Assembly: GCA_013626165.1 (NCBI GenBank)
Contig: NDHX01000005.1
Coordinates: 26,875-90,874 of the forward strand
Length of the DNA: 64,000 nucleotides
DNA from: Candidatus Velesiimonas alkalicola
GTDB lineage: Bacteria; Omnitrophota; Gorgyraeia; Velesiimonadales; Velesiimonadaceae
Direction: 5' to 3'
Part shown: positions 26,123 to 52,944 of the stretch, one piece after another
Layout: each line of letters starts with the position of its first letter
How positions within the stretch are numbered: position 1 is the stretch's first letter
Notes under the pieces: generated by a model
The model's input: only the letters and a program-made list of their open reading frames with translations
Databases searched by the model: none
What the model was told of the DNA's origin: nothing
Translations under genes and position numbers: made by a program

Positions 26123-26171
26123 GCACCAGGGCACCAGTGCACCAGGGCACCAGGGCACCAGGGCACCAGTT
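26121..26171. repeat. Tandem heptamer/octamer array GCACCAG(G/T), about 6.5 copies, starting at the ridA stop codon
   Basis: gagcaccagggcaccagtgcaccagggcaccagggcaccagggcaccagt, read directly. Confidence 0.85.
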
Positions 26172-26209
26172 TATACCATGTCTTTTTCTATTTCTCCAAA
26201 AAAAGTACT

Positions 26210-27587
26210 GTTATAAAATAGTGATATGTCCTATTTCTTAACAAATGAAATGTCCGCTTTCAAAGCGGGGAATGATAATATGTTTGGCCTAATCAAGGAG
26301 GTTAGGTATGCAGACATATTATCCAAAACCCGCACTGGAGCGGGCAATGAAGGTTCAGGAGGTCATATTACGGGCTATAAGCGGACAGATTCACTGGATT
26401 CAAGCGGCAGAGATATTAGGCATATCAGACCGGCAGATGCGCCGGTGGAAATGGCGCTACGAAAAACACGGTTATGACGGCCTATATGACAGGCGCAGGA
26501 AGATACCAAGCCCCAAAAGAGTGCCTTTAGAGACCGTGGAAAAGGTCCTGCGTTTATACAGGGAAAAATACTTCGATTTTAATATGTCCCATTTTTACGA
26601 TAAGTTACGAAAAGAGCACAATATAAAATTAAGTTATAACTGGATAAGGCTTGCCTTACAAGGCGCCGGACTCGTTGAAAGACGCCAAAGACGCTCTCCC
26701 CACAGAAAACGCCGAGCAAGGAAGCCCCTAATAGGCATGATGCTCCACATGGACGGTTCTCCTCATGACTGGTTCGGTAACGGCTTAGAATATGATATCG
26801 TCACTATATCGGATGACGCAAATAATGAGCTCTACGGCATAGAACTGGCAGACGAGGAGGATTCTCTTACCTGCATGTCTCTTATCAGGAACCTCATCGA
26901 GAAGAAAGGCATATTCTGCTCGTTATACACAGACAGGGCAAGCCACTTCTTCCTTACTAAAAAGGCAGGAGAAGACGTCTCCAAAGACAACCTTACCCAA
27001 ATAGGAAGGGCCTTGCAGGAATTAGGCGCCCAGCATATCCCTTCTTATTCGCCGCAGGCAAGAGGCAGATCAGAAAGACTTAACGAGACCCTACAAGGCA
27101 GAATTCCTCAAGAACTAAGGCTAAGAGGCATAAAAACAAAGGAAGCCGCCAATAGATACCTAAAGACAGAATATCTCAAAGAACACAACAGAAGATTCGC
27201 AATAAAGCCAGAAGGCGAAGGCAGCGCCTTTATCCCGGTACCTAAGACAACGGATTTAGACAAGATTTTTTGCTTCAAACACGAAAGGACCGTCAACAAC
27301 GATAACACCATATCGTTTAACAACCGGATACTCCAAATAGGCCCATCAGAACTTAGGGTATCGTTCGCCAAATGCAGAGTTACTGTCTATGAACATATAG
27401 ATGGCTCTGTGACTATAGGATACGGCCCTCATACGCTTGGTTATTATCCGCCCAAAGGCTTATCCACATATCCATACAATTCACAAAAAGAAAAGGTAGC
27501 CAAAAGAAAAAGGACTACTACTAACATTAACCAAAAGCGGACACATCACTTGTTAGAAAAAGCGGACATCTTGACTATTTAATTACA
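26210..27587 (+). mobile_element. Intact insertion sequence (~1378 bp) with imperfect terminal inverted repeats, flanked by a 17-bp direct repeat TCTCCAAAAAAAGTACT (26193-26209 and 27588-27604)
   Basis: A perfect 17-bp direct repeat brackets the element. Termini are GTTATAAAATAGTGATATGTCC (left) vs the reverse complement of the right end, TGTAATTAAATAGTCAAGATGTCC. It holds a single long transposase ORF. Confidence 0.75.
26308..27582 (+). CDS. Transposase, rve (retroviral integrase-type DDE) catalytic core with N-terminal HTH. It is IS481-like or ISNCY (IS1202-group)-like.
   Basis: 424 aa. DDE candidates lie in HMDGS (D), LYTDRASHF (D, ~60 aa later) and SERLNETLQ (E, ~39 aa later). The N-terminal segment ILGISDRQMRRWKWRY looks HTH-like. 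Confidence 0.75.
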   Translation: MQTYYPKPALERAMKVQEVILRAISGQIHWIQAAEILGISDRQMRRWKWRYEKHGYDGLYDRRRKIPSPKRVPLETVEKVLRLYREKYFDFNMSHFYDKLRKEHNIKLSYNWIRLALQGAGLVERRQRRSPHRKRRARKPLIGMMLHMDGSPHDWFGNGLEYDIVTISDDANNELYGIELADEEDSLTCMSLIRNLIEKKGIFCSLYTDRASHFFLTKKAGEDVSKDNLTQIGRALQELGAQHIPSYSPQARGRSERLNETLQGRIPQELRLRGIKTKEAANRYLKTEYLKEHNRRFAIKPEGEGSAFIPVPKTTDLDKIFCFKHERTVNNDNTISFNNRILQIGPSELRVSFAKCRVTVYEHIDGSVTIGYGPHTLGYYPPKGLSTYPYNSQKEKVAKRKRTTTNINQKRTHHLLEKADILTI

Positions 27588-27951
27588 TCTCCAAAAAAAG
27601 TACTTGACAAGATTTAATTTATGTGGTACATTTGAAATTCAGAAGAGACACAATAGGTAGTAGTTATCATTTTAATAAACATAATGGGATGGAGGGAGAA
27701 ACCCAGAACAGTGGAACCAAACTGATTTTAAGATTTCCTCTTGGGATACAGTATTTGAAAATTAAAATGTAGAATCCATTATCAGATTTTGAAGGATGAA
27801 TAATGGAGGATGTTTTCCCGCTGCAAATGGGTTGTTCTTGCCTTCGCACTGTTTTAAGCTATTTAACTATATTCAGGGTTTTTGTATTCTAAGAGGAATG
27901 GAAAAGGGGCTTTTATAAGGTCCCTTTTTGTGTTTTTAAGGAGAAAGCAGT

Positions 27952-28947
27952 ATGTCTATAAGGATTGGTTTAACTTACGATTTAAGGTCAGACTATATCT
28001 TAAAAAAGGAAGATCCTGAAGATCTAAATGCAGAGTTTGATCATGGACAGACGATAAATGCATTAAGCAAGGTTTTTACATCCGCTGGTTATAAGGTTGT
28101 AAGAATTGGAAATGTGAAAAACCTTCTTTCATCCATTGATAACCTTGGGGTGGACATTGTGTTTAATATAGCAGAAGGCTTGTGTGGAAGAAACAGGGAA
28201 TCGCAGGTGCCCATCCTGCTTGAAATGAGGGGCATTCCTTTTGTTGGTTCTGATGCCCTTACTCTGGGACTTACACTTGATAAGATGTTTGCAAAGAAGA
28301 TATTTATTGCCAATGATATCCCAACGCCTAAGTTTATCTCTGTTAAAAATCCCTGTAAGTTGGACGGCATAGACTTGAAATTTCCTATTATTGTAAAACC
28401 GAGATTTGAGGGGTCAAGTAAAGGGATAAACGATAATTCCATCTTTATAGATAGACAGGGTTTGGTAAAGCAATGTCAGTGGCTTATAGATACATATAAA
28501 CAGCCTGCTCTTGCAGAGGAGTTTATTGAAGGAAAAGAATTCACTGTTGTAATAATAGGAAACGATGATGCATGGGCTCTACCTGTTGTTCAGATTAAAA
28601 TAGACGGAGAACTTGAACTTGGGAACAGGTGTTATACATTTTCAAGAATACACTCAACCACGCTTGATTATGTTTGTCCTGCTCAAATATCATCTGAGAT
28701 GGAAGAGGACATCAAGAAGGTTGCCCTTGCTGCTTATCATTCTGTAGAGTGCAGAGACTTTGGAAGGGTTGATATCAGGCTTGATAAGGATAACCGTTTG
28801 TATGTGCTTGAGATTAATCCTCTTCCGAGTTTGTCTTCGCAGGATGTTTTTCCTGTTGTTGCAAAAGCAGCAGGATGTAGTTACGAGGATTTGATTATGA
28901 AGATATTGGATGAGGCATTGGAAAGATACAATATAAGGAGAATATGA
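27952..28947 (+). CDS. ATP-grasp ligase, D-alanine--D-alanine ligase-like (paralog 1)
   Basis: 331 aa with Ddl-like N-terminal, central and C-terminal ATP-grasp regions (PFVGSDALT, EEFIEGKEFTV, LEINPLP). Confidence 0.75.
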   Translation: MSIRIGLTYDLRSDYILKKEDPEDLNAEFDHGQTINALSKVFTSAGYKVVRIGNVKNLLSSIDNLGVDIVFNIAEGLCGRNRESQVPILLEMRGIPFVGSDALTLGLTLDKMFAKKIFIANDIPTPKFISVKNPCKLDGIDLKFPIIVKPRFEGSSKGINDNSIFIDRQGLVKQCQWLIDTYKQPALAEEFIEGKEFTVVIIGNDDAWALPVVQIKIDGELELGNRCYTFSRIHSTTLDYVCPAQISSEMEEDIKKVALAAYHSVECRDFGRVDIRLDKDNRLYVLEINPLPSLSSQDVFPVVAKAAGCSYEDLIMKILDEALERYNIRRI

Positions 28948-29999
28948 AAAGAAAAGTTGCGCTAGTATGCAATATAAAACACTATGATTCTACAAAACCA
29001 AAGGATTATGAATCGGAATTTGATTCTATAAAAACGGTTAATTCAATAGCAGAGGCACTAAAAGACGGAGGGAACAGGGTTGATGTTATGGAGGCAAACG
29101 GTGTTCTTCTTCCCCATCTTTTAAAGAAAAAGCCGGACATAGTTTTTAATATTTCAGAGGGGGTTGGCGGCTCCAGCAGAGAGGCGCAGGTTCCCTCTAT
29201 ACTTGAATTTCTCGGTATTCCATATACCGGCTCAGGTGTCCTTGCACTTGCGCTTGCACTTGATAAGGCTAAGTCAAAGAAAATATTTATCACAGAGGGA
29301 ATTCCAACCCCAAAATTTCAGGTTTTTACTCTCGCGGATGAAGCCCTTGATACTGGACTAAAATTTCCTTTAATAGTAAAACCCAATTGTGAAGGTTCGG
29401 CAAAGGGTATATCTGCAAAAAGTGTTGTTTGTAATGAAAAAGAGTTGCCTAACCGGGTAAGAGAAGTAATAGAAACATATAAACAGCCTGCCCTTGTTGA
29501 AGAGTTCATAGAGGGGGAAGAATTTACTGTTGGAGTTCTTGGAAACGGCCAGCCTTATGTGTTTCCGCCTATGTTGATAGATTTTTCAAAATGCAAGGCC
29601 GGCGGAGAATCATTTTATTCATGGAGGGTAAAGGAATACCAGGGTGATGAAAAACAATACCTCGTTCCCGAATTTGAATGCCCTGCAAGTATAACAAAAC
29701 AAGAGGAAAGAAAATTAAAAGAAGTGGCGCTAAAATCTCACCAGGCAATAGGATGTGTGGATATATCAAGGACAGATATTCGTTTAAGCAAGAATGGTGT
29801 TCCATATGTTCTTGAAATAAATCCGTTACCGGGGCTTGACCCTGATGAAAGTAATTTTACAAAGATAACAAATTCCTGCGGCATAAAATATAAGGATCTG
29901 ATAAATACAATATTGGAGCTTGCTTGTAAAAGGTATAACCTGACGGGCTCTGATAAGAAGGAGGAGGAGAAAATTGTACACAGACTACAGGCGGTGTGA
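28944..29999 (+). CDS. ATP-grasp ligase, D-alanine--D-alanine ligase-like (paralog 2)
   Basis: 351 aa, clearly paralogous to the upstream gene (shared DIVFNI(S/A)EG...RE(A/S)QVP...GIP(Y/F)(T/V)GS...IPTPKF, EEFIEGEEFTV, LEINPLPGL). ATGA overlap with the upstream stop. Confidence 0.75.
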   Translation: MKRKVALVCNIKHYDSTKPKDYESEFDSIKTVNSIAEALKDGGNRVDVMEANGVLLPHLLKKKPDIVFNISEGVGGSSREAQVPSILEFLGIPYTGSGVLALALALDKAKSKKIFITEGIPTPKFQVFTLADEALDTGLKFPLIVKPNCEGSAKGISAKSVVCNEKELPNRVREVIETYKQPALVEEFIEGEEFTVGVLGNGQPYVFPPMLIDFSKCKAGGESFYSWRVKEYQGDEKQYLVPEFECPASITKQEERKLKEVALKSHQAIGCVDISRTDIRLSKNGVPYVLEINPLPGLDPDESNFTKITNSCGIKYKDLINTILELACKRYNLTGSDKKEEEKIVHRLQAV

Positions 30000-31149
30000 A
30001 CTCTGGAAAGATGTCCAAGAAGAACAGTGGGAGGATTGGGGTTGGCAGATAAGAAATAGAATTACAACGGTTGAACAATTAAAAAAGGTTATTGATGTAA
30101 CAGAAGAAGAAGAAAAGGGGATACTGCAGTCAAAGGGAAGACTTGCAATGGCAATTACTCCATACTGGGCAAGCCTTATGGACAAAGAAAAACCATACTG
30201 TCCGATAAGAAGGCAGGCGGTCCCTACCGTTCTTGAATCATATGTTACAGCACAGGAAACAACAGACCCTCTTTCTGAGGATGAGGATTCTCCGGTGCCG
30301 GGGCTTGTCCACAGATACCCTGACAGGGTCCTTCTTCTTGCAACGGACCAGTGTGCAATGTATTGCAGACACTGCACAAGAAGAAGGCTTGTAGGAGAAG
30401 GTGATTTTTCTATCTCGGAACACCTTGAAAAGGCTTTTGAATATATAAGAGCAAATAAAAAGATAAGAGATGTTCTTATATCAGGTGGAGACCCTCTTAT
30501 GCTGCCAGATGAGAGGATAGAAACAATACTGAAAGGTATCCGTTCAATATCAAGTGTTGAGATTGTAAGGATTGGAAGCCGTGTTCCTGTTACGCTTCCG
30601 ATGCGTATAACAGGAAATTTAATTTCAATACTTAAAAAATATAATCTGTTGTGGATGTCCATACATTTTAATCATCCGAAAGAGATTACAAAAAGATGTA
30701 AAAGAGCCTGTTCAGATGTTGTTGATGCGGGTATTCCTATGGGAAGCCAGACCGTCCTTCTTAAAGGTATTAATGAAAGGCTATACATAATGAAAAAACT
30801 TATGCATGATCTTTTAGCAATAAGGGTAAGACCTTACTATATGTATCAATGCGACCTGGCAAGAGGGACAAGTCATTTTAGAGCTCCTGTTTCAGTGGGT
30901 ATTCAATTGATGGAAAAATTAAGAGGACATACCACAGGTTATGCGGTCCCTACATACGTTATTGATGCCCCCGGTGGAGGGGGGAAGATACCTATTGCTC
31001 CAAACTATATTGTATCTGAGTCTAATGGTGTGTATACATTAAGAAATTACGAGGGGAAGATTTTCCGCTACAGCGAAGAAACAGAATTTGTTTCTGCGGC
31101 ACAGGAAGAAAATACACCTGCACCATTAGTAGAACAAAAAATAGACTGA
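29974..31149 (+). CDS. KamA-family radical SAM aminomutase (lysine 2,3-aminomutase-like). Substrate is not resolved: lysine or glutamate.
   Basis: 391 aa with the CAMYCRHCTRRR radical-SAM CxxxCxxC signature identical in style to KamA. The N-terminus ELWKDV..W.DW.WQ matches KamA. Start overlaps the preceding ATP-grasp gene. Confidence 0.8.
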   Translation: MYTDYRRCELWKDVQEEQWEDWGWQIRNRITTVEQLKKVIDVTEEEEKGILQSKGRLAMAITPYWASLMDKEKPYCPIRRQAVPTVLESYVTAQETTDPLSEDEDSPVPGLVHRYPDRVLLLATDQCAMYCRHCTRRRLVGEGDFSISEHLEKAFEYIRANKKIRDVLISGGDPLMLPDERIETILKGIRSISSVEIVRIGSRVPVTLPMRITGNLISILKKYNLLWMSIHFNHPKEITKRCKRACSDVVDAGIPMGSQTVLLKGINERLYIMKKLMHDLLAIRVRPYYMYQCDLARGTSHFRAPVSVGIQLMEKLRGHTTGYAVPTYVIDAPGGGGKIPIAPNYIVSESNGVYTLRNYEGKIFRYSEETEFVSAAQEENTPAPLVEQKID

Positions 31150-31172
31150 CAGATAAGGTTTTAAGTATATAA

Positions 31173-32761
<1,589 letters not shown>

Positions 32762-35310: not shown

Positions 35311-35754
35311 ATGGGAAGGGTTCTTATAATAGATGACGAAGAATCTACAAGAGAGATTATAAGTATCATTCTTAAAAAAGAAGGGCACGAGATATCTACC
35401 GCCGTTGATGGAAAACAGGGACTTATGCTTGCACAGAATGAAAAACCGGATATTATACTTCTTGATATAAGAATGCCCGTTATGGATGGAATTGAAGTCT
35501 TGAAAGCATTAAAAGGAAGCGATGCAACCTCTCCTATACCTGTTGTAATGATTACGGCCCTTCCGCAAGAAAGAGAAAGGGCAATAGAAAACGGTTGTGA
35601 TGAATTTCTTACCAAACCCATAGACAGACTTGAACTTATTGCAAGGGTAAGGTCATTGACACGTTTAAGTAAATTATTTAGAGACCTTGATTTATCTATA
35701 GAGTATCTTTTAAGGCTTAAAAAGGGTGTAAAAAATGATACTTCTTTCAAATAA
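35311..35754 (+). CDS. Response regulator, receiver domain only (CheY-like)
   Basis: 147 aa: RVLIIDDEES...DIILLDIRMPVMDG...VVMITA. It has the phospho-acceptor Asp context and no output domain. The tracked ORF start at 35224 lies inside the repeat, so Met 35311 is the likely start. Confidence 0.8.
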   Translation: MGRVLIIDDEESTREIISIILKKEGHEISTAVDGKQGLMLAQNEKPDIILLDIRMPVMDGIEVLKALKGSDATSPIPVVMITALPQERERAIENGCDEFLTKPIDRLELIARVRSLTRLSKLFRDLDLSIEYLLRLKKGVKNDTSFK

Positions 35755-37183
35755 AATATGAGGTTGTAAAAACCGGTATTTTTACTATGGGACGGTAAGA
35801 AGTTTTTACTTTTTTTAAATTTTCCAGGCCGCTGTCTCCCATCAAACTTATATATCTATAAGAAATATGTTCTTTGCAAAATTCCCTGAACATCCATTGT
35901 GCAAGTCCTTTTATTTCCGGTTCTGCAATTTCAAAAAGAATACAGAATGTATCCTGTCTTAAAGGAAAACCAAATGTATACCCTTCTATTTTATTGTTGA
36001 TATATATAACCCTTCCTTCAAGCCCTAACCTTTCTGCATATAGCATTCCTGTTTGGTGTGCCAGAGCAGAATCCGATATAAGCATGTTATAGTATTCATC
36101 CTCATTGTATTTGTCCTGCGACTGATTGTTTCTTATTCTTTTTTTTGCCCATCTTAAGTACAGAGCAATGGCTTCTTGTGTTTGATGCCTTGAAAAATTT
36201 CTATATGTATATTTATACCTGTTATTAAAATAATTACAGTTAGCTCTTTTTGATTTATATCTATCTCCTTTTAATTCTACAAGTTCTTTTGTAAGGCAGA
36301 TATATTCTAAATCAGATTTTTTAAAATCCAAATAAGGTTCCTCGCAATCCTGCAGAGCAAGGTTTTCTATTCTTGAAACGGCTGAATCTTTGCCGTTTAA
36401 CTGCTTAAGAATGTCCATCCCTGTGCTTAATTGATGGCCGTTGCCTATCGGCGGCAAAAGCAAAAACCAGCCTCCTGTTTTTGCAAATATAAAAAGGTGG
36501 TCCTCAATAATTTTCCATGCAATATGCAAAATATCTTTCCATATAAATATGGACAGAAAAGAATATGAACTTAAAAAGGAGTTATATTTATTAAAAAAGT
36601 TCTGTATAATATCTTTGTCTCTGATGCAAATTTTTTTTAACCCTATGGGTAAAAATCTCTCTGTTGAGCGTTTAACAGAAAAAAGTTTCTGCACAGACGC
36701 CTGATATTCCATAATGAAACAATGATTTTTTTCAAGGTATTCCGTAAGATTTTTATTAAAATATTCTTCAAGGTATTCTACATATTTCTTAAAGCTTTCC
36801 TTTCCCCACATACTTCTTATGATTGGACAGGAAAAATCTGCGCCGACCACAATGGCATTGCGATGTTTATTTTCCATAACAACAAAAGGGTACAACTGGC
36901 AATCAAAAGGTCTTCTCTTATAGACATTACAGGAACTTTTATCAGTGTCAAAAAACGGGCATACACACACATCTTTTTTTTGAACCAATCCGATTCTTGT
37001 TCCCCTTCTATTGTCAATATGCGGAAGATATATATCCTGTATGTACGGGGAAAGATTAAGGACCTCTTCTGCATCAAGATATGGTCTTATCGGTGTATCA
37101 GGGCTTGAAAATCTACAACATACCCTGCATTTAAGGCATAGTTTTTGTGTAATAAAATTCGGTTGAGTAAACACATCTTTCAC
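35747..37183 (-). CDS. Fusion protein: N-terminal YkgJ-type Cys cluster (CxxCxxCC) plus C-terminal DUF2156-like (LPG-synthase-C / aminoacyl-tRNA-dependent transferase-like) domain. Tentative.
   Basis: 478 aa with N-terminal CLKCRVCCRF. The C-terminal ~170 aa resemble the MprF C-terminal DUF2156 pattern (GRVIYINNKIEGYTFGFP...EPEIKGLAQWMFREF...LMGDSGLENL). Confidence 0.4.
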   Translation of the reverse strand: MKDVFTQPNFITQKLCLKCRVCCRFSSPDTPIRPYLDAEEVLNLSPYIQDIYLPHIDNRRGTRIGLVQKKDVCVCPFFDTDKSSCNVYKRRPFDCQLYPFVVMENKHRNAIVVGADFSCPIIRSMWGKESFKKYVEYLEEYFNKNLTEYLEKNHCFIMEYQASVQKLFSVKRSTERFLPIGLKKICIRDKDIIQNFFNKYNSFLSSYSFLSIFIWKDILHIAWKIIEDHLFIFAKTGGWFLLLPPIGNGHQLSTGMDILKQLNGKDSAVSRIENLALQDCEEPYLDFKKSDLEYICLTKELVELKGDRYKSKRANCNYFNNRYKYTYRNFSRHQTQEAIALYLRWAKKRIRNNQSQDKYNEDEYYNMLISDSALAHQTGMLYAERLGLEGRVIYINNKIEGYTFGFPLRQDTFCILFEIAEPEIKGLAQWMFREFCKEHISYRYISLMGDSGLENLKKVKTSYRPIVKIPVFTTSYFI

Positions 37184-47828: not shown

Positions 47829-49211
47829 ATGTGGATAGATACTCACTGTCATTTGGATTTTAAAAATTTCAACAAGGACAGGGATGGTGTTCTTGAAAAA
47901 GCTTTTTCTTGTGGTGTAAAGAAAGTTATAAATCCGGCAGCATCAATCCAATCCAGCAGGAATGCTATTGATATATCTGCAAGATATAAAAATGTGTTTG
48001 CAGCCATAGGCATCCATCCAATAGATGCAGATGAATGGACGCCCCTGAATTTTAAGATTATTAAAGATCTTGCAAAATCTGAAAAAGTTATTGCAATAGG
48101 TGAAACAGGTCTTGATTATTACAGAACCGAGACAAAAAAGGGGAAACAAATAAAAAGTTTTAACGCACACATTGAGATTGCTGGACACCTTGACCTTCCG
48201 TTAATAATCCACATAAGAGATGCATTTGAGGATGCAATATCTATACTATCCCGCAGGGCAGAATCTGGCGCAAAAAATAAAGTAAAAGGGGTTGTCCATT
48301 GTTTTTCAGGAAATATAAAACAGGCAGAATCTATTCTTGATTTAGGACTTTATATATCGTTTACCGGAAATATAACATATCCCAAAGCAAAACATTTAAG
48401 AGAGGTTGTTTCTTATGTTCCAATAGAAAAAATGATGGTAGAAACCGATGCCCCTTTTCTTGCTCCGCAAGGTATCCGAGGAAAAAGAAATGAACCCTGC
48501 TATGTTATAGAGGTTGGAAAGGTTCTTACAGAGATCAAGAAATTATCCCTGCAGGATGTTGAAAGAATCACAAGTTTGAATGCAATACAGTTGTTCAGTA
48601 TAGGAGAAGAAAAATCAAAACAAAACATTGCATATCCAATAAGAGATTCATTGTATCTTAATATAACAAACAGATGCACAAATGTTTGTTCATTTTGTAT
48701 AAGGGCAAAAACCGATTTTATAAAAGGACATTTTTTAAGACTTGAAACTGAACCCGCAATAGAACAGATTATAGATGCTATAGCGGATGCAAAATCATAT
48801 AAAGAGGTTGTATTCTGTGGATATGGGGAACCAACGCTAAGACTTGATATTGTTGTAAGGGTTGCAGAAAGATTAAAAAAGATGGGTGTTCCTGTCCGAC
48901 TGAATACCAATGGGCATGGCAGCCTTATTGCCGGGAAGGATATAGTGCCTGAGATTGCAGGCAGGGTTGACAAGGTAAGCATAAGCCTTGATGCTCACGA
49001 TTCTATCACATACAATAAAATATGCAAACCTGTCTGGGGCGAAAAAACATTTGATGCAATACTTGAGTTTGCAAAAAGGTGCCTTGAACTTAATATAGAT
49101 GTAGAACTAACAGTCGTTAGAATTCCAACAGTGGATGTTGAAAAATGCAAAGAAATTGCTCACCAATTAGGGACAGTTTTCAGAGTAAGAGAATACGATG
49201 AAGTGGGATAG
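47829..49211 (+). CDS. Fusion: TatD-family metallo-hydrolase (N-terminal) plus TatD-associated radical SAM domain (C-terminal)
   Basis: 460 aa. N-terminal WIDTHCHLD..., GLDYY and HCFSG are TatD motifs. C-terminal LNITNRCTNVCSFC (CX3CX2C) and GEPTL are radical SAM motifs. Confidence 0.75.
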   Translation: MWIDTHCHLDFKNFNKDRDGVLEKAFSCGVKKVINPAASIQSSRNAIDISARYKNVFAAIGIHPIDADEWTPLNFKIIKDLAKSEKVIAIGETGLDYYRTETKKGKQIKSFNAHIEIAGHLDLPLIIHIRDAFEDAISILSRRAESGAKNKVKGVVHCFSGNIKQAESILDLGLYISFTGNITYPKAKHLREVVSYVPIEKMMVETDAPFLAPQGIRGKRNEPCYVIEVGKVLTEIKKLSLQDVERITSLNAIQLFSIGEEKSKQNIAYPIRDSLYLNITNRCTNVCSFCIRAKTDFIKGHFLRLETEPAIEQIIDAIADAKSYKEVVFCGYGEPTLRLDIVVRVAERLKKMGVPVRLNTNGHGSLIAGKDIVPEIAGRVDKVSISLDAHDSITYNKICKPVWGEKTFDAILEFAKRCLELNIDVELTVVRIPTVDVEKCKEIAHQLGTVFRVREYDEVG

Positions 49212-50199: not shown

Positions 50200-50386
50200 G
50201 AATAGAAATGTCAAATATCAAATATCAAATATTAAATATCATTACACATAAGGTTCTGTGATGTGGAGGTGTCCTGTGTATTATATAGGAGACCTTTTTA
50301 TTAAATCTTTATAATTTAAAATTTATTCAAAATTGGAAATTAAAAATTCCTCACCTCTACTACCTACTATATTTTCGGAGGGGTGG

Positions 50387-50468
50387 CAGAGTGGACGAAT
50401 GCGGCGGTCTCGAAAACCGTTATCCGTCTTAAAACGGATCGGGGGTTCAAATCCCTTCCCCTCCGCCA
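50387..50468 (+). tRNA. tRNA-Ser (anticodon CGA). It marks the boundary of the downstream R-M island.
   Basis: GGAGGGG TG GCA GAGTGGACGAA TGC ... anticodon loop CTCGAAA, a long variable arm, T-arm GGGGGTTCAAATCCCTTC and 3' CCGCCA. Confidence 0.8.
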
Positions 50469-50902: not shown

Positions 50903-51748
50903 ATGGAAAAGAGACATCGACAACATCTAAAAACACGAAAAAGTCCGCCCTTTAACCTTTTATCCAAGGGACAAGAGGATACGGCAAAAGTGGCTTCGAA
51001 TATTGTGTGGGAAACAATACTTAAAAAATACCCACACTTAGATTTTAATAATCTTGAGACACTGGGTCTTAAAGACTTGAAAGCTGGATATGCTATTGCG
51101 TATATAAACCGAGGCACAAAATTAGTCGGTTTGCCAGAAAGAAAACCCAAAGAATTACAAGCCTTCGACTCCGCAGACGGAATTAAACCTGATGGCGGTA
51201 TATTTTTTGTTCAATCAAAAAAAGATAATTTTAACCATATTATTGGCGCGCTTGAAGTAAAACATCAAGGAGAATATGACGGATATACGCCAATTAGTGA
51301 CGCCGATTGGAAGAAGAAAGGCGGCGACCCTTCAATTCCAAGAGAGAAAAGACCGCCTCAAGCACAAGGTAATGCGATAGAGAGATTTGCTAAAAACGCC
51401 AATGCCATAAAAACACTAACCAGTTTTTATGGCTACAATCCTTATATTGTTTTTACTGAAGGGTTTGACTTTTTCCTTAAAGATGATTTCAAGATTTTTG
51501 AAAAACAACCGCATTCTTCCCGTTTCAAAAACAGAGATTCTTCGATTCTTATGAGGTTGATAGCTGGAAATGATTGGCTTCCGCTCAATAGGGTATATGT
51601 TGATTGCTTGCAGCACGGTAATACCCAAATCTGCCCAGCGACAATTTTTGCTCGAATGTCAAAATGGAGCGCAGAGGAAATCGCGAAAATTATGTTAGTA
51701 GTTATCGATAAATCTCTTGCGCGTCTACGCAAACTTGATGAGATTTAA
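50903..51748 (+). CDS. EcoRI-family type II restriction endonuclease
   Basis: 281 aa with DGIKPDGGIFFV, EVKHQGE and AQGNAIERFAKN, which correspond to EcoRI motifs (SIKPDGGI, EAKHQG, AAGNAIER). Confidence 0.75.
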   Translation: MEKRHRQHLKTRKSPPFNLLSKGQEDTAKVASNIVWETILKKYPHLDFNNLETLGLKDLKAGYAIAYINRGTKLVGLPERKPKELQAFDSADGIKPDGGIFFVQSKKDNFNHIIGALEVKHQGEYDGYTPISDADWKKKGGDPSIPREKRPPQAQGNAIERFAKNANAIKTLTSFYGYNPYIVFTEGFDFFLKDDFKIFEKQPHSSRFKNRDSSILMRLIAGNDWLPLNRVYVDCLQHGNTQICPATIFARMSKWSAEEIAKIMLVVIDKSLARLRKLDEI

Positions 51749-52944
51749 GCAGTTTTCTTTTCAAGAATCCAAAGCAATTCTTTGACTTTTATATCCCTAT
51801 CGCGCAGATTTCTTGAGCCGCGATAAGTGTTATAATCTTGCTCCATTAGTTCCCATTTCCCGTATTGCGAGAGAATTTTTTTGAAGACATCAATTGGAAT
51901 TATTCCCTCGTCGTTATAGGAAATCGCAATAAATTTTGCCCGAGTACCGGCCAAGAGTTGATCCATCGCATCTTCGGCAATCTTTCTTTTGTTATACGCC
52001 GATCTGTTCCATTCTTTTGCTATACCGCTTACACCATCTTGTATTCCCACTGGCTTACCGCCATTGATAATATTAAGCATAAAGTAATTCGAGCCATAAG
52101 GATGTTGATTATAGGGTGGGTCATAATAGACTAAATCAAAGAATGGAATATTTTTGTCTTTCACCAGTTCATTTACATCTCGTTTGCAAACAAACACAGG
52201 ACACTCAAAATCAGAAAATTCAGGCACATCAAGCGAAATTTCTTTTTTAATACGAGAAAGAGCGTTTTCCCCCCGTCCGCCAAAATGTCCATTGCCGTTG
52301 TGCTTATGAAATCCCTTAAACACGCCTGATGTGTTTGTGTGGATAGACGCTTTTACCAAAAGCGAGGCGAGACAAAAATGTTTATATTTTCTTGGCACTT
52401 CATCAATCAGTTCCCGTAAGTTATCTATAATTTTTGCGTTTTTGTTTGTGTAAAATACTCTTTCTCCTTGTTGGACATTATTATCATTTTTTGGAGCATA
52501 ATTTTTTTCTATAAATCCAATATCATTAGCTTTAAGTTTTAATTTATTTTCGTTGAGCCAATTTATATATTTTTCTAATTCTTTTATATCTATTTCTGAT
52601 TTATTAGCAAGATAAGCATGATTTAATGTTTCGGCGTAATCTTCCAAATCGTTTACATGAAGTTCGCTCGCAAATGCTTTTAACAAGCGAGCCGCCGCAC
52701 CACTTCCGACGAAGCCATCTAGTATAACCATTTTTTGCTTCCCTAACTTTTCCCTGATTTTCAGAAATCCTTTATACAGAAAAGGCAGTAGCCGTCGTTT
52801 ATTGCCAATATAGGTAATAAGATGGGAAGTAAAAAATGGGCTCTGTAAGTCTAAATTTTTTACAGGGTCTGAAGGAAACAAATTCAATTTCGATTGTGGA
52901 TAATGTTTCGATGGCATATTTTTTCTGATAACTTTAGTATACAC
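51745..52944 (-). CDS. Dam-like (D12-class, alpha) N6-adenine DNA methyltransferase of R-M system A
   Basis: 399 aa: YIGNKRRLLPFL...ILDGFVGSGAAARLL...NDLED...DPPY. The order matches Dam/EcoRV-type MTases. Convergent with, and 4 bp overlapping, the REase gene. Confidence 0.75.
   Translation of the reverse strand: MYTKVIRKNMPSKHYPQSKLNLFPSDPVKNLDLQSPFFTSHLITYIGNKRRLLPFLYKGFLKIREKLGKQKMVILDGFVGSGAAARLLKAFASELHVNDLEDYAETLNHAYLANKSEIDIKELEKYINWLNENKLKLKANDIGFIEKNYAPKNDNNVQQGERVFYTNKNAKIIDNLRELIDEVPRKYKHFCLASLLVKASIHTNTSGVFKGFHKHNGNGHFGGRGENALSRIKKEISLDVPEFSDFECPVFVCKRDVNELVKDKNIPFFDLVYYDPPYNQHPYGSNYFMLNIINGGKPVGIQDGVSGIAKEWNRSAYNKRKIAEDAMDQLLAGTRAKFIAISYNDEGIIPIDVFKKILSQYGKWELMEQDYNTYRGSRNLRDRDIKVKELLWILEKKTA

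Follow-up and report, generated by a model that had tools for sequence, protein, structure and literature searches.

A 64,000-nucleotide stretch of the Candidatus Velesiimonas alkalicola assembly (Omnitrophota; contig NDHX01000005.1, positions 26,875 to 90,874; this whole stretch is hereafter the window) carries a compact operon in which two paralogous ATP-grasp ligases, LigA and LigB, are followed by a radical S-adenosylmethionine (SAM) aminomutase, KamA. This triad is kept together across several uncultured bacterial phyla. Judged by sequence, the ligases share the fold and the complete ATP/Mg catalytic set of D-alanine-D-alanine ligase (Ddl) but are not bona fide Ddl enzymes, and the aminomutase is of the lysine type, not of the EpmB or glutamate type. 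In our assessment it is about evenly balanced whether the triad is a self-contained pathway to a small beta-lysine-containing peptide.

An earlier note on this DNA had proposed that a mutase forming a beta-amino acid and two amide-forming ligases would together make a beta-lysine or beta-glutamate peptide. The proposal is supported in its beta-lysine version. The three observations named as speaking against it were looked for and not made: the aminomutase does not group with EpmB, the ligases do not group with true Ddl, and the triad is conserved as a unit.

Organization of the operon

The three open reading frames (ORFs) lie on the same strand and span 3.2 kb in total:

27952 to 28947, forward strand: LigA, 331 residues, predicted Ddl-fold ATP-grasp ligase with an altered acceptor site (from Pfam, NCBIfam and family-invariant residues)
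28944 to 29999, forward strand: LigB, 351 residues, predicted paralogous Ddl-fold ATP-grasp ligase with the Ddl acceptor residues retained
29974 to 31149, forward strand: KamA, 391 residues, predicted radical-SAM, pyridoxal 5'-phosphate (PLP)-dependent lysine 2,3-aminomutase (from TIGR03820 and the match to 2A5H)

LigA and LigB overlap by the ATGA at 28944-28947, and AAGGAG stands immediately 5' of the LigB start. KamA begins at a TTG (29974) located 4 nucleotides (nt) downstream of GGAGGAGGAG and overlaps LigB by 26 nt; in the solved lysine 2,3-aminomutase structure 2A5H, the N-terminus agrees with this start. The signature CAMYCRHCTRRR was found at KamA residues 127-138 (window 30352-30387). 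The earlier description of two overlapping Ddl-like paralogues, the second running into the start of an aminomutase with the lysine 2,3-aminomutase signature, proved exact in all its coordinates. Pfam recognizes Dala_Dala_lig_C in both ligases (E 2e-33 and 3e-35) and Radical_SAM with LAM_C in KamA. The two ligases are 41.6% identical, and hhalign matches their family profiles over the full length (probability 100). Pfam and NCBIfam contain no model dedicated to the triad proteins, whose matches are all to general or Ddl models.

Conservation of the triad

The gene neighbourhood survey called for by the earlier note was run on metagenomes with an alignment query and returned 80 loci, 53 of them long enough to judge gene order. 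The order LigA-LigB-KamA recurs in 52 of these 53 independent loci, which places the triad beyond chance. The same order was found among species-representative genomes in Omnitrophota and in metagenome-assembled genomes labelled Planctomycetales. The genes are rearranged to KamA-Lig-Lig in three other lineages, represented by three Dadabacteria, one Dehalococcoidales and one Gemmatales genome. The genome scan was made with LigB alone; 70 of its 80 loci held ordinary betaproteobacterial Ddl genes and loci L003-L012 were informative. The motif EEFIEGEE is common to LigB-type ligases and to the ordinary Ddl loci of that scan.

Some of these variant operons carry additional genes. In Dadabacteria and Dehalococcoidales operons only, a gene for a GNAT acetyltransferase stands in fourth place, and an APC-family amino-acid permease is divergent from KamA in all four Gemmataceae-type loci. 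A DUF3109/CxxCxxCC protein is encoded directly downstream in two Gemmataceae-type operons (in one of them at L011:8347-8865).

Each ligase family has several thousand significant relatives at 55-64% identity, the named ones being mostly Candidatus Omnitrophota; for LigA, an all-against-all library held 1,024 cluster representatives (50% identity clusters) at E <= 1e-30. Parts of the triad are also physically fused. Among 149 cluster representatives scanned, out of 150 listed, 36 are ligase-ligase fusions, one is a ligase-KamA fusion and one a KamA-ligase fusion.

A lysine-type aminomutase

KamA residues 6-373 align with the Clostridium subterminale lysine 2,3-aminomutase 2A5H (E 1.1e-149). On the AblA-type lysine 2,3-aminomutase model TIGR03820, KamA scores 524.1 bits, just under the cut-off of 525.4, and on the general model TIGR00238 it scores 368.1 bits against a cut-off of 199.2. 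On the remaining models of the family it scores well below the cut-offs: EpmB (TIGR03821) gives 239.6 bits against 369.3, glutamate 2,3-aminomutase (TIGR04368) 459 against 650, and arginine mutase 400 against 600.

The active-site residues point in the same direction. The cluster motif CxxxCxxC reads CAMYCRHC in the window (KamA residues 127-134). In 2A5H numbering, Cys125/129/132, Arg134, Asp293, Asp330 and Lys337 are invariant in 66 of the 66 KamA genes linked to triad ligases. We take Lys337 to be the PLP-binding residue and Arg134 to bind the carboxylate, while Asp293 and Asp330 presumably hold the epsilon-ammonium of lysine, positions occupied by Lys and Asn in glutamate 2,3-aminomutase. 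The comparison of lysine- and glutamate-determining residues suggested earlier gave lysine-type residues at both positions in every one of these enzymes, and the motifs YQCDL and IDAPGGGGK of the Asp293/Asp330 region were both found in the window KamA. Because of these two aspartates and the low score on the glutamate model, the predicted product of KamA is beta-lysine and not beta-glutamate. The lysine half of the earlier alternative is thereby retained and the glutamate half set aside.

KamA differs from the clostridial enzyme at the Zn site, where Cys268 is Arg in the window and is replaced in all 66 linked homologues, and it ends at residue 391 without the Cys-rich tail. Zn site and tail mark the clostridial enzyme, not the reaction.

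Two non-equivalent ligases on the Ddl fold

On the curated Ddl models (NF002378, TIGR01205 and the equivalogs), the best scores are 180.7 bits for LigA and 199.4 bits for LigB against a cut-off of 243, and with the remaining Ddl models both proteins fall even further below. The fold is nonetheless that of Ddl. The LigB model (predicted local distance difference test, pLDDT, 92.6) has only Ddl structures as best Protein Data Bank matches, with template modelling (TM) scores of 0.75-0.88 and 24-31% identity, and the same holds for the LigA model (pLDDT 75.7; TM 0.72-0.84; 22-25% identity). Every top Foldseek match is a Ddl of the three-domain ATP-grasp fold, identity being 20-31% overall. These models confirm the fold and only the fold.

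The functions of E. coli DdlB residues Glu15, Gly276, Arg255, Ser281 and Lys215, including the contact of Glu with the donor amino group, are those given in PMC5717164. The residues Lys97, Lys144, Glu180, Glu187, Arg255, Asp257, Glu270 and Asn272 of DdlB are conserved in the two window ligases and in their families, as is the Glu that salt-bridges the donor amino group in Ddl. The first site is altered in every LigA and LigB member examined, with His63 replaced by Glu, Val18 by Asp and Glu68-Asp69 by Arg-Glu. The resulting first-pocket motif is A/S-E-F-D (AEFDH with Glu75 in LigA, SEFD with Glu72 in LigB), and the Arg-Glu pair occurs also in the first ligase of the KamA-first operons.

The two paralogues part at the acceptor site. 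In Ddl, Lys215, Gly276 and Ser281 hold the carboxylate of the incoming amino acid. LigB keeps all three (Lys230, Gly297 and Ser303, respectively). In LigA alone, Gly276 is replaced by Ser293 and Ser281 by Asp298, both invariant in the family, and no Lys aligns at 215. Most ligase-ligase fusions in which both halves could be aligned combine one module with the Ser281 equivalent and one without it, in either order. By these residues, the members of the pair are consistently non-equivalent, and their modules have been fused in both orders.

In a neighbour-joining distance tree calculated without support values and with six true Ddl as references (E. coli DdlB and five betaproteobacterial enzymes), all KamA-linked ligases form one clade apart from the references. 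KamA-first operons have a second ligase that falls in another clade, at a greater distance. It is from the sub-cut-off scores, the separate clade and the altered first-site residues together that we conclude that LigA and LigB are not Ddl.

This bears on the reading in which both ligases would be the ordinary D-Ala-D-Ala ligases of the organism and KamA an unrelated neighbour. Fold and catalytic residues are indeed those of Ddl, and many sources, including most public annotation of the triad ligases, name them D-alanine-D-alanine ligase. Against this stand scores below every curated cut-off, the separate clade, acids in place of His63 and Val18 in all members, the absence of Ser281 from LigA, and a strict linkage to KamA that extends across phyla and to physical fusion. 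We hold this reading to be extremely improbable, and the annotation of these genes as D-alanine-D-alanine ligase is very probably wrong.

A predicted route to a beta-lysine peptide

From family membership and residues, KamA would turn L-lysine into beta-lysine. Operon conservation and fusions suggest that each ligase would then use ATP to form a single amide bond by way of an acyl-phosphate, the two sites being non-equivalent. In both ligases, the acidified first pocket would be suited to a donor that bears another ammonium group, for example lysine or beta-lysine. LigB probably joins an ordinary alpha-amino acid to the activated carboxyl, because it keeps the Ddl acceptor site with its carboxylate-binding Ser and Lys. 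Since Asp replaces the carboxylate-binding Ser in LigA, that enzyme probably takes the amine of a cationic acceptor, for instance an amino group of beta-lysine itself. Donor and acceptor assignments are drawn by analogy with Ddl. The expected product would be soluble, as large as a di- to tripeptide and based on beta-lysine, and our best guess at its role would be a cytoplasmic protectant or cation. In the variant operons with a GNAT enzyme, acetylation would neutralize the remaining amine, as in N-epsilon-acetyl-beta-lysine.

Acidic donor pockets in both ligases and an acidic acceptor site in LigA could also mean that beta-lysine is used as donor and acceptor alike. The ligases would then act iteratively, one module initiating and the other elongating an oligo- or poly-beta-lysine polycation that may be exported, as paralleled by the beta-lysine chain of streptothricins and by epsilon-poly-lysine. 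The non-equivalence of the paired modules and the amino-acid/polyamine-type APC permease adjoining Gemmataceae-type operons would agree with such a product. The carboxylate-binding acceptor residues of LigB, however, better fit a simple alpha-amino acid, the Omnitrophota-type operons hold no exporter or membrane component, and active sites of the Ddl fold are closed and small. A polymer is in our view unlikely.

A third possibility is a building block of the cell envelope, such as a beta-lysine-containing dipeptide used in the stem or cross-bridge of peptidoglycan, or a group that decorates some other polymer of the envelope. The nearest relatives of both ligases by sequence and fold are peptidoglycan dipeptide ligases. 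The context is a housekeeping one, with LptF/G and FtsB nearby in the window and glycosyltransferases often upstream of the unit in relatives. Yet no mur, fem or transfer enzyme is linked to the triad in about 100 loci, the variant operons have GNAT and permease partners that better fit a soluble metabolite, and we know of no peptidoglycan that contains beta-lysine. We therefore rate an envelope role as improbable.

Beta-lysine has a role in the modification of elongation factor P (EF-P), and the triad might accordingly be thought to beta-lysylate a protein, with its ATP-grasp ligases either standing in for EpmA on EF-P or tagging a ribosomal protein or translation factor in the manner of RimK. 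In 26-30 of 55 Omnitrophota-type loci, KamA is followed by genes for an EF-G-like GTPase and for a protein that has a YchF C-terminal domain. KamA is however of the AblA/clostridial and not the EpmB type, no efp gene or conserved candidate target adjoins the unit in the related loci surveyed, neither the window nor L086, L088 or the other phyla have the EF-G-like neighbour, and Ddl-type ligases act on small molecules. This makes protein modification very unlikely in our estimate.

Several observations weigh against a small beta-lysine peptide as the product or as a widespread one. The substrate assignments are residue analogies with Ddl in which the alignment of the omega loop is uncertain, and the LigA model is only moderately confident. 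Locus L163 carries LigA and KamA without LigB, so that two ligations are not obligatory. The KamA-first systems may make a different compound, given the distant clade of their second ligase. The EF-G-like GTPase, present at most three genes after KamA in 30 of 55 Omnitrophota-type loci, could point to translation. Finally, the matches come mostly from freshwater, groundwater and sediment metagenomes, as far as the few record names tell, and a near-universal osmolyte would be unexpected there.

A conserved leader upstream of LigA

The region before LigA holds an element that was absent from the earlier note, a conserved leader, with the following features in the window:

27604 to 27632, forward strand: native promoter, TTGACAA-N14-TGTGGTACATT, with a -35 hexamer and an extended -10 (promoter scan, 10/12 matches with TG)
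27633 to 27951, forward strand: 5' leader of about 320 nt, with GGAGG at 27691-27695, then 15 nt, then GTGGAACC from 27711 (GTGGAAC)
27901 to 27939, forward strand: intrinsic-terminator-like hairpin and U-run, with the hairpin at 27901-27929, its core GGGGCTTTTATAAGGTCCC at 27906-27924, then TTTTTGTGTTTTT (terminator scan)

The terminator ends about 12 nt 5' of the LigA ATG, and LigA is preceded by its own AAGGAG. In relatives, the leader is mostly shorter (about 115 nt against about 320 nt in the window), the U-run ends about 8 nt before the ATG and there is usually no Shine-Dalgarno sequence. The order of elements in LigA-first leaders is promoter, purine-rich box, hairpin and U-run. The promoter reads TTGACAA-N14-TGTGATAAAAAA, its -35 region appearing as CTTGACAA, and the arrangement CTTGACAA ... 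TGTGATAAAAAA occurs in 59 of 79 distinct leaders. The purine box has the form GGAGG-N13/14-UUGRAAAAA. Written as GGAGG-N12-17-(T/G)TG(G/A)AAAAA it was found in 59 leaders, with TTG in 55, GTG in 4 and ATG in none. The terminator stem TAAGGGCTC ... GAGCCCTTA is largely conserved in relatives, and where stems vary they remain complementary. A strong hairpin with a U-run stands between promoter and LigA in 69 of the 79 leaders, compared with 0-1 of 79 shuffles. Examples can be seen at L103:1108-1257 and upstream of LigA in L092, L138 and L099.

As transcription must pass the predicted terminator to reach the genes, expression would be attenuated, and the hairpin with its U-run is a candidate attenuator. 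In Omnitrophota-type operons, the leader next to the promoter, closed by an intrinsic terminator, would gate expression. Plain promoters precede the KamA-first operons, whose 5' untranslated regions contain no terminator, so the attenuator would be specific to the LigA-first type. From its sequence, the leader looks like an undescribed attenuator or riboswitch.

Known riboswitches, including the lysine riboswitch, were excluded by the lack of any Rfam 15 match at gathering score in the window and seven related loci, where only chance-level matches appeared at E <= 10. RNAalifold gave no consensus structure for a MAFFT alignment of 57 leaders, in which variable loops misalign the hairpin. No anti-terminator or aptamer stems were found, the region before the terminator being purine-rich with no stems evident by eye. 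A conserved leader peptide was also considered and rejected. The ORF after the box measures 3-47 codons, runs over the terminator in varying frames and never starts with ATG, and its start lies 13-14 nt from GGAGG, too distant when compared with 3-4 nt at the LigB and KamA starts. Short-ORF or ribosome-standby models are possible. No further copy of box plus terminator, and hence no clue to a regulon, was found in the 0.88 Mb of DNA searched.

Other features were noticed around these leaders. An inverted repeat, ATATTGT ... ACAATAT, brackets the -10 in related loci (e.g. L129, L103 and L144). Because the 5' arm precedes the probable start of transcription, the repeat may serve as an operator for a repressor and not as an RNA stem. 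Five loci (L106, L137, L149, L155 and L168) have hairpin-forming inserts of 80-180 nt (e.g. CATAACTTATGGAG ... ACATAAGTTAT) between the terminator and the LigA ATG, which look like small repeats of the repetitive extragenic palindromic (REP) or miniature inverted-repeat transposable element (MITE) type. At L163:1364-3525, where LigA is directly followed by KamA, the leader is shorter and the terminator stem different.

Insertion sequence and neighbouring genes

The window operon is preceded by a mobile element that lies outside the pathway and is given for context:

26210 to 27587, forward strand: insertion sequence (IS) of the ISNCY family, with a transposase ORF at 26308-27582

The transposase scores 370.6 bits on NF033594 (cut-off 250), terminal inverted repeats are found at 26234-26260 and 27534-27560, and a 17-bp target-site duplication, TCTCCAAAAAAAGTACT, brackets the element at 26193-26209 and 27588-27604. 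A transposase above the curated score, inverted repeats and a duplicated target together place the element in ISNCY. The duplication sets its boundaries exactly where the earlier note had placed them. That note had also supposed that the IS may influence expression of the operon. The element does lie as described, but it has not separated the operon from its promoter: it inserted flush 5' of the native -35 hexamer and left promoter and leader intact. Duplication and -35 share one T, the final base of the former and the first of the latter, and the A-rich stretch 5' of the -35 falls inside the duplication, so that it was retained after insertion. Two public contigs, labelled 'bacterium Unc6' at NCBI (LigA and LigB identical, KamA 99.7%), begin exactly at window position 27588, which is the usual assembly break at a repeated element. 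On the other side of the IS, six tandem copies of the 8-mer GCACCAG(G/T) occupy 26123-26170, directly after the ridA stop codon.

The order in the window is transketolase, RidA, IS, triad, enolase and FtsB. Across the loci surveyed, the flanking genes are housekeeping ones and variable, with no nonribosomal peptide synthetase or polyketide synthase context. At the KamA stop, just 5' of enolase, a promoter-like CTGACA-16-TATAAT (31146-31173, 11/12 matches) indicates that enolase probably has its own promoter, independent of the operon.

The EF-G-like GTPase of related loci has about 650 residues and the G1 motif GHAQSGKTS (L085:10351-13021, L083:14740-17059 and 28 other loci). The protein with the YchF C-terminal domain is found after KamA in about half of the Omnitrophota-type loci and is followed by purH. 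We considered the GTPase as a fourth component of the system and treat it instead as lineage synteny, on account of its absences from the window, L086, L088 and other phyla.

Further downstream, the fifth gene after KamA (35747-37183, reverse strand) joins a CxxCxxCC domain to DUF2156/LPG_synthase_C, the fold of aminoacyl-tRNA-dependent lysyl transferases; a link of this protein to the pathway is possible. A single ORF at 47829-49211 combines a TatD-type hydrolase domain with a radical-SAM domain. At 50903-52944, genes for an EcoRI-like restriction endonuclease and a D12-class adenine methyltransferase run towards each other (a type II restriction-modification pair), adjoined by a tRNA gene at 50377-50465.

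Significance

To our knowledge, beta-lysine occurs as an archaeal and bacterial osmolyte, in EF-P modification, in lysine fermentation and in some antibiotics, and in few other roles. The triad would add a ligase-based route to beta-lysine peptides. With thousands of relatives and sister versions in Planctomycetota, Dadabacteria and Dehalococcoidales, it is no rarity of a single strain. Members of the Omnitrophota are reported never to have been isolated (PMC10066038). In these genomes, annotation of the triad ligases as Ddl very probably inflates the apparent number of cell-wall genes. Whatever relieves the terminator of the conserved leader is likely to be a substrate or product of the pathway.

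A wider proposal can be made more tentatively, at a likelihood that we set clearly below even. Omnitrophota and related uncultured lineages would contain, as a regular cell component, a hitherto unknown beta-lysine peptide made by the triad, and this peptide would found a class of its own among cytoplasmic cations or protectants. A novel type of leader, acting either as a riboswitch or as an attenuator that depends on ribosome or protein, would switch production of the peptide; it would be composed of the GGAGG-N13/14-UUGRAAAAA box and a sequence-conserved terminator.

Comparison with known systems

No literature was found on KamA linked to Ddl-like ligases, although an earlier description may exist. 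The enzymes come from known superfamilies and their logic has precedents in AblAB, EpmAB and RhiM/RhiC.

AblA and AblB make N-epsilon-acetyl-beta-lysine in methanogens and some bacteria. They share with the triad a first enzyme of the same subfamily, lysine 2,3-aminomutase, and a scheme in which beta-lysine is then modified by an adjacently encoded amide-forming enzyme; the Dadabacteria and Dehalococcoidales variants even carry a GNAT. The partners in the triad, however, are two ATP-grasp ligases and not an acetyltransferase, and its KamA lacks the Zn-site cysteine and scores just under the TIGR03820 cut-off. No GNAT was found in the window operon or in Omnitrophota-type loci.

In EpmA and EpmB, a KamA-family mutase likewise has as its partner an enzyme that uses ATP to bind beta-lysine in an amide. 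EpmB nevertheless belongs to a distinct subfamily, for which the window KamA falls below the model cut-off, and EpmA is a paralogue of class II aminoacyl-tRNA synthetases rather than an ATP-grasp enzyme. Neither the window nor the neighbour clusters of related loci include an EpmA- or EF-P-like protein. The earlier view that the operon follows neither the AblAB nor the EpmAB architecture therefore stands.

Further parallels exist. In blasticidin S biosynthesis, an arginine 2,3-aminomutase is combined with an amide ligase, so that a KamA-family beta-amino acid is joined by an ATP-dependent ligase, and the Ngg system (a GNAT and an ATP-grasp enzyme) makes the dipeptide osmolyte N-acetylglutaminylglutamine amide (NAGGN). 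Substrates and enzyme subfamilies differ from those of the triad in both cases, and KamA scores low on the arginine model.

With Ddl and with VanA/VanG, the triad ligases have in common the three-domain fold (TM 0.72-0.88), the ATP, Mg and oxyanion residues and the donor-amino Glu. They differ by their 20-31% identity, sub-cut-off scores, separate clade and altered pockets, and by forming a non-equivalent pair linked to KamA.

A parallel to the use of two ligases is found in RhiM/RhiC of rhizocticin and HsvB/HsvC of phevamine A (PMC6187163), where two ATP-grasp ligases act sequentially on an unusual building block made by a neighbouring enzyme. For rhizocticin, RhiM is reported to ligate first and RhiC to extend the RhiM product (PMC13579937). 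Those systems are strain-specific secondary-metabolite clusters of cultured bacteria. The triad, in contrast, is compact, sits among housekeeping genes, extends across whole uncultured lineages and employs ligases of the Ddl branch.

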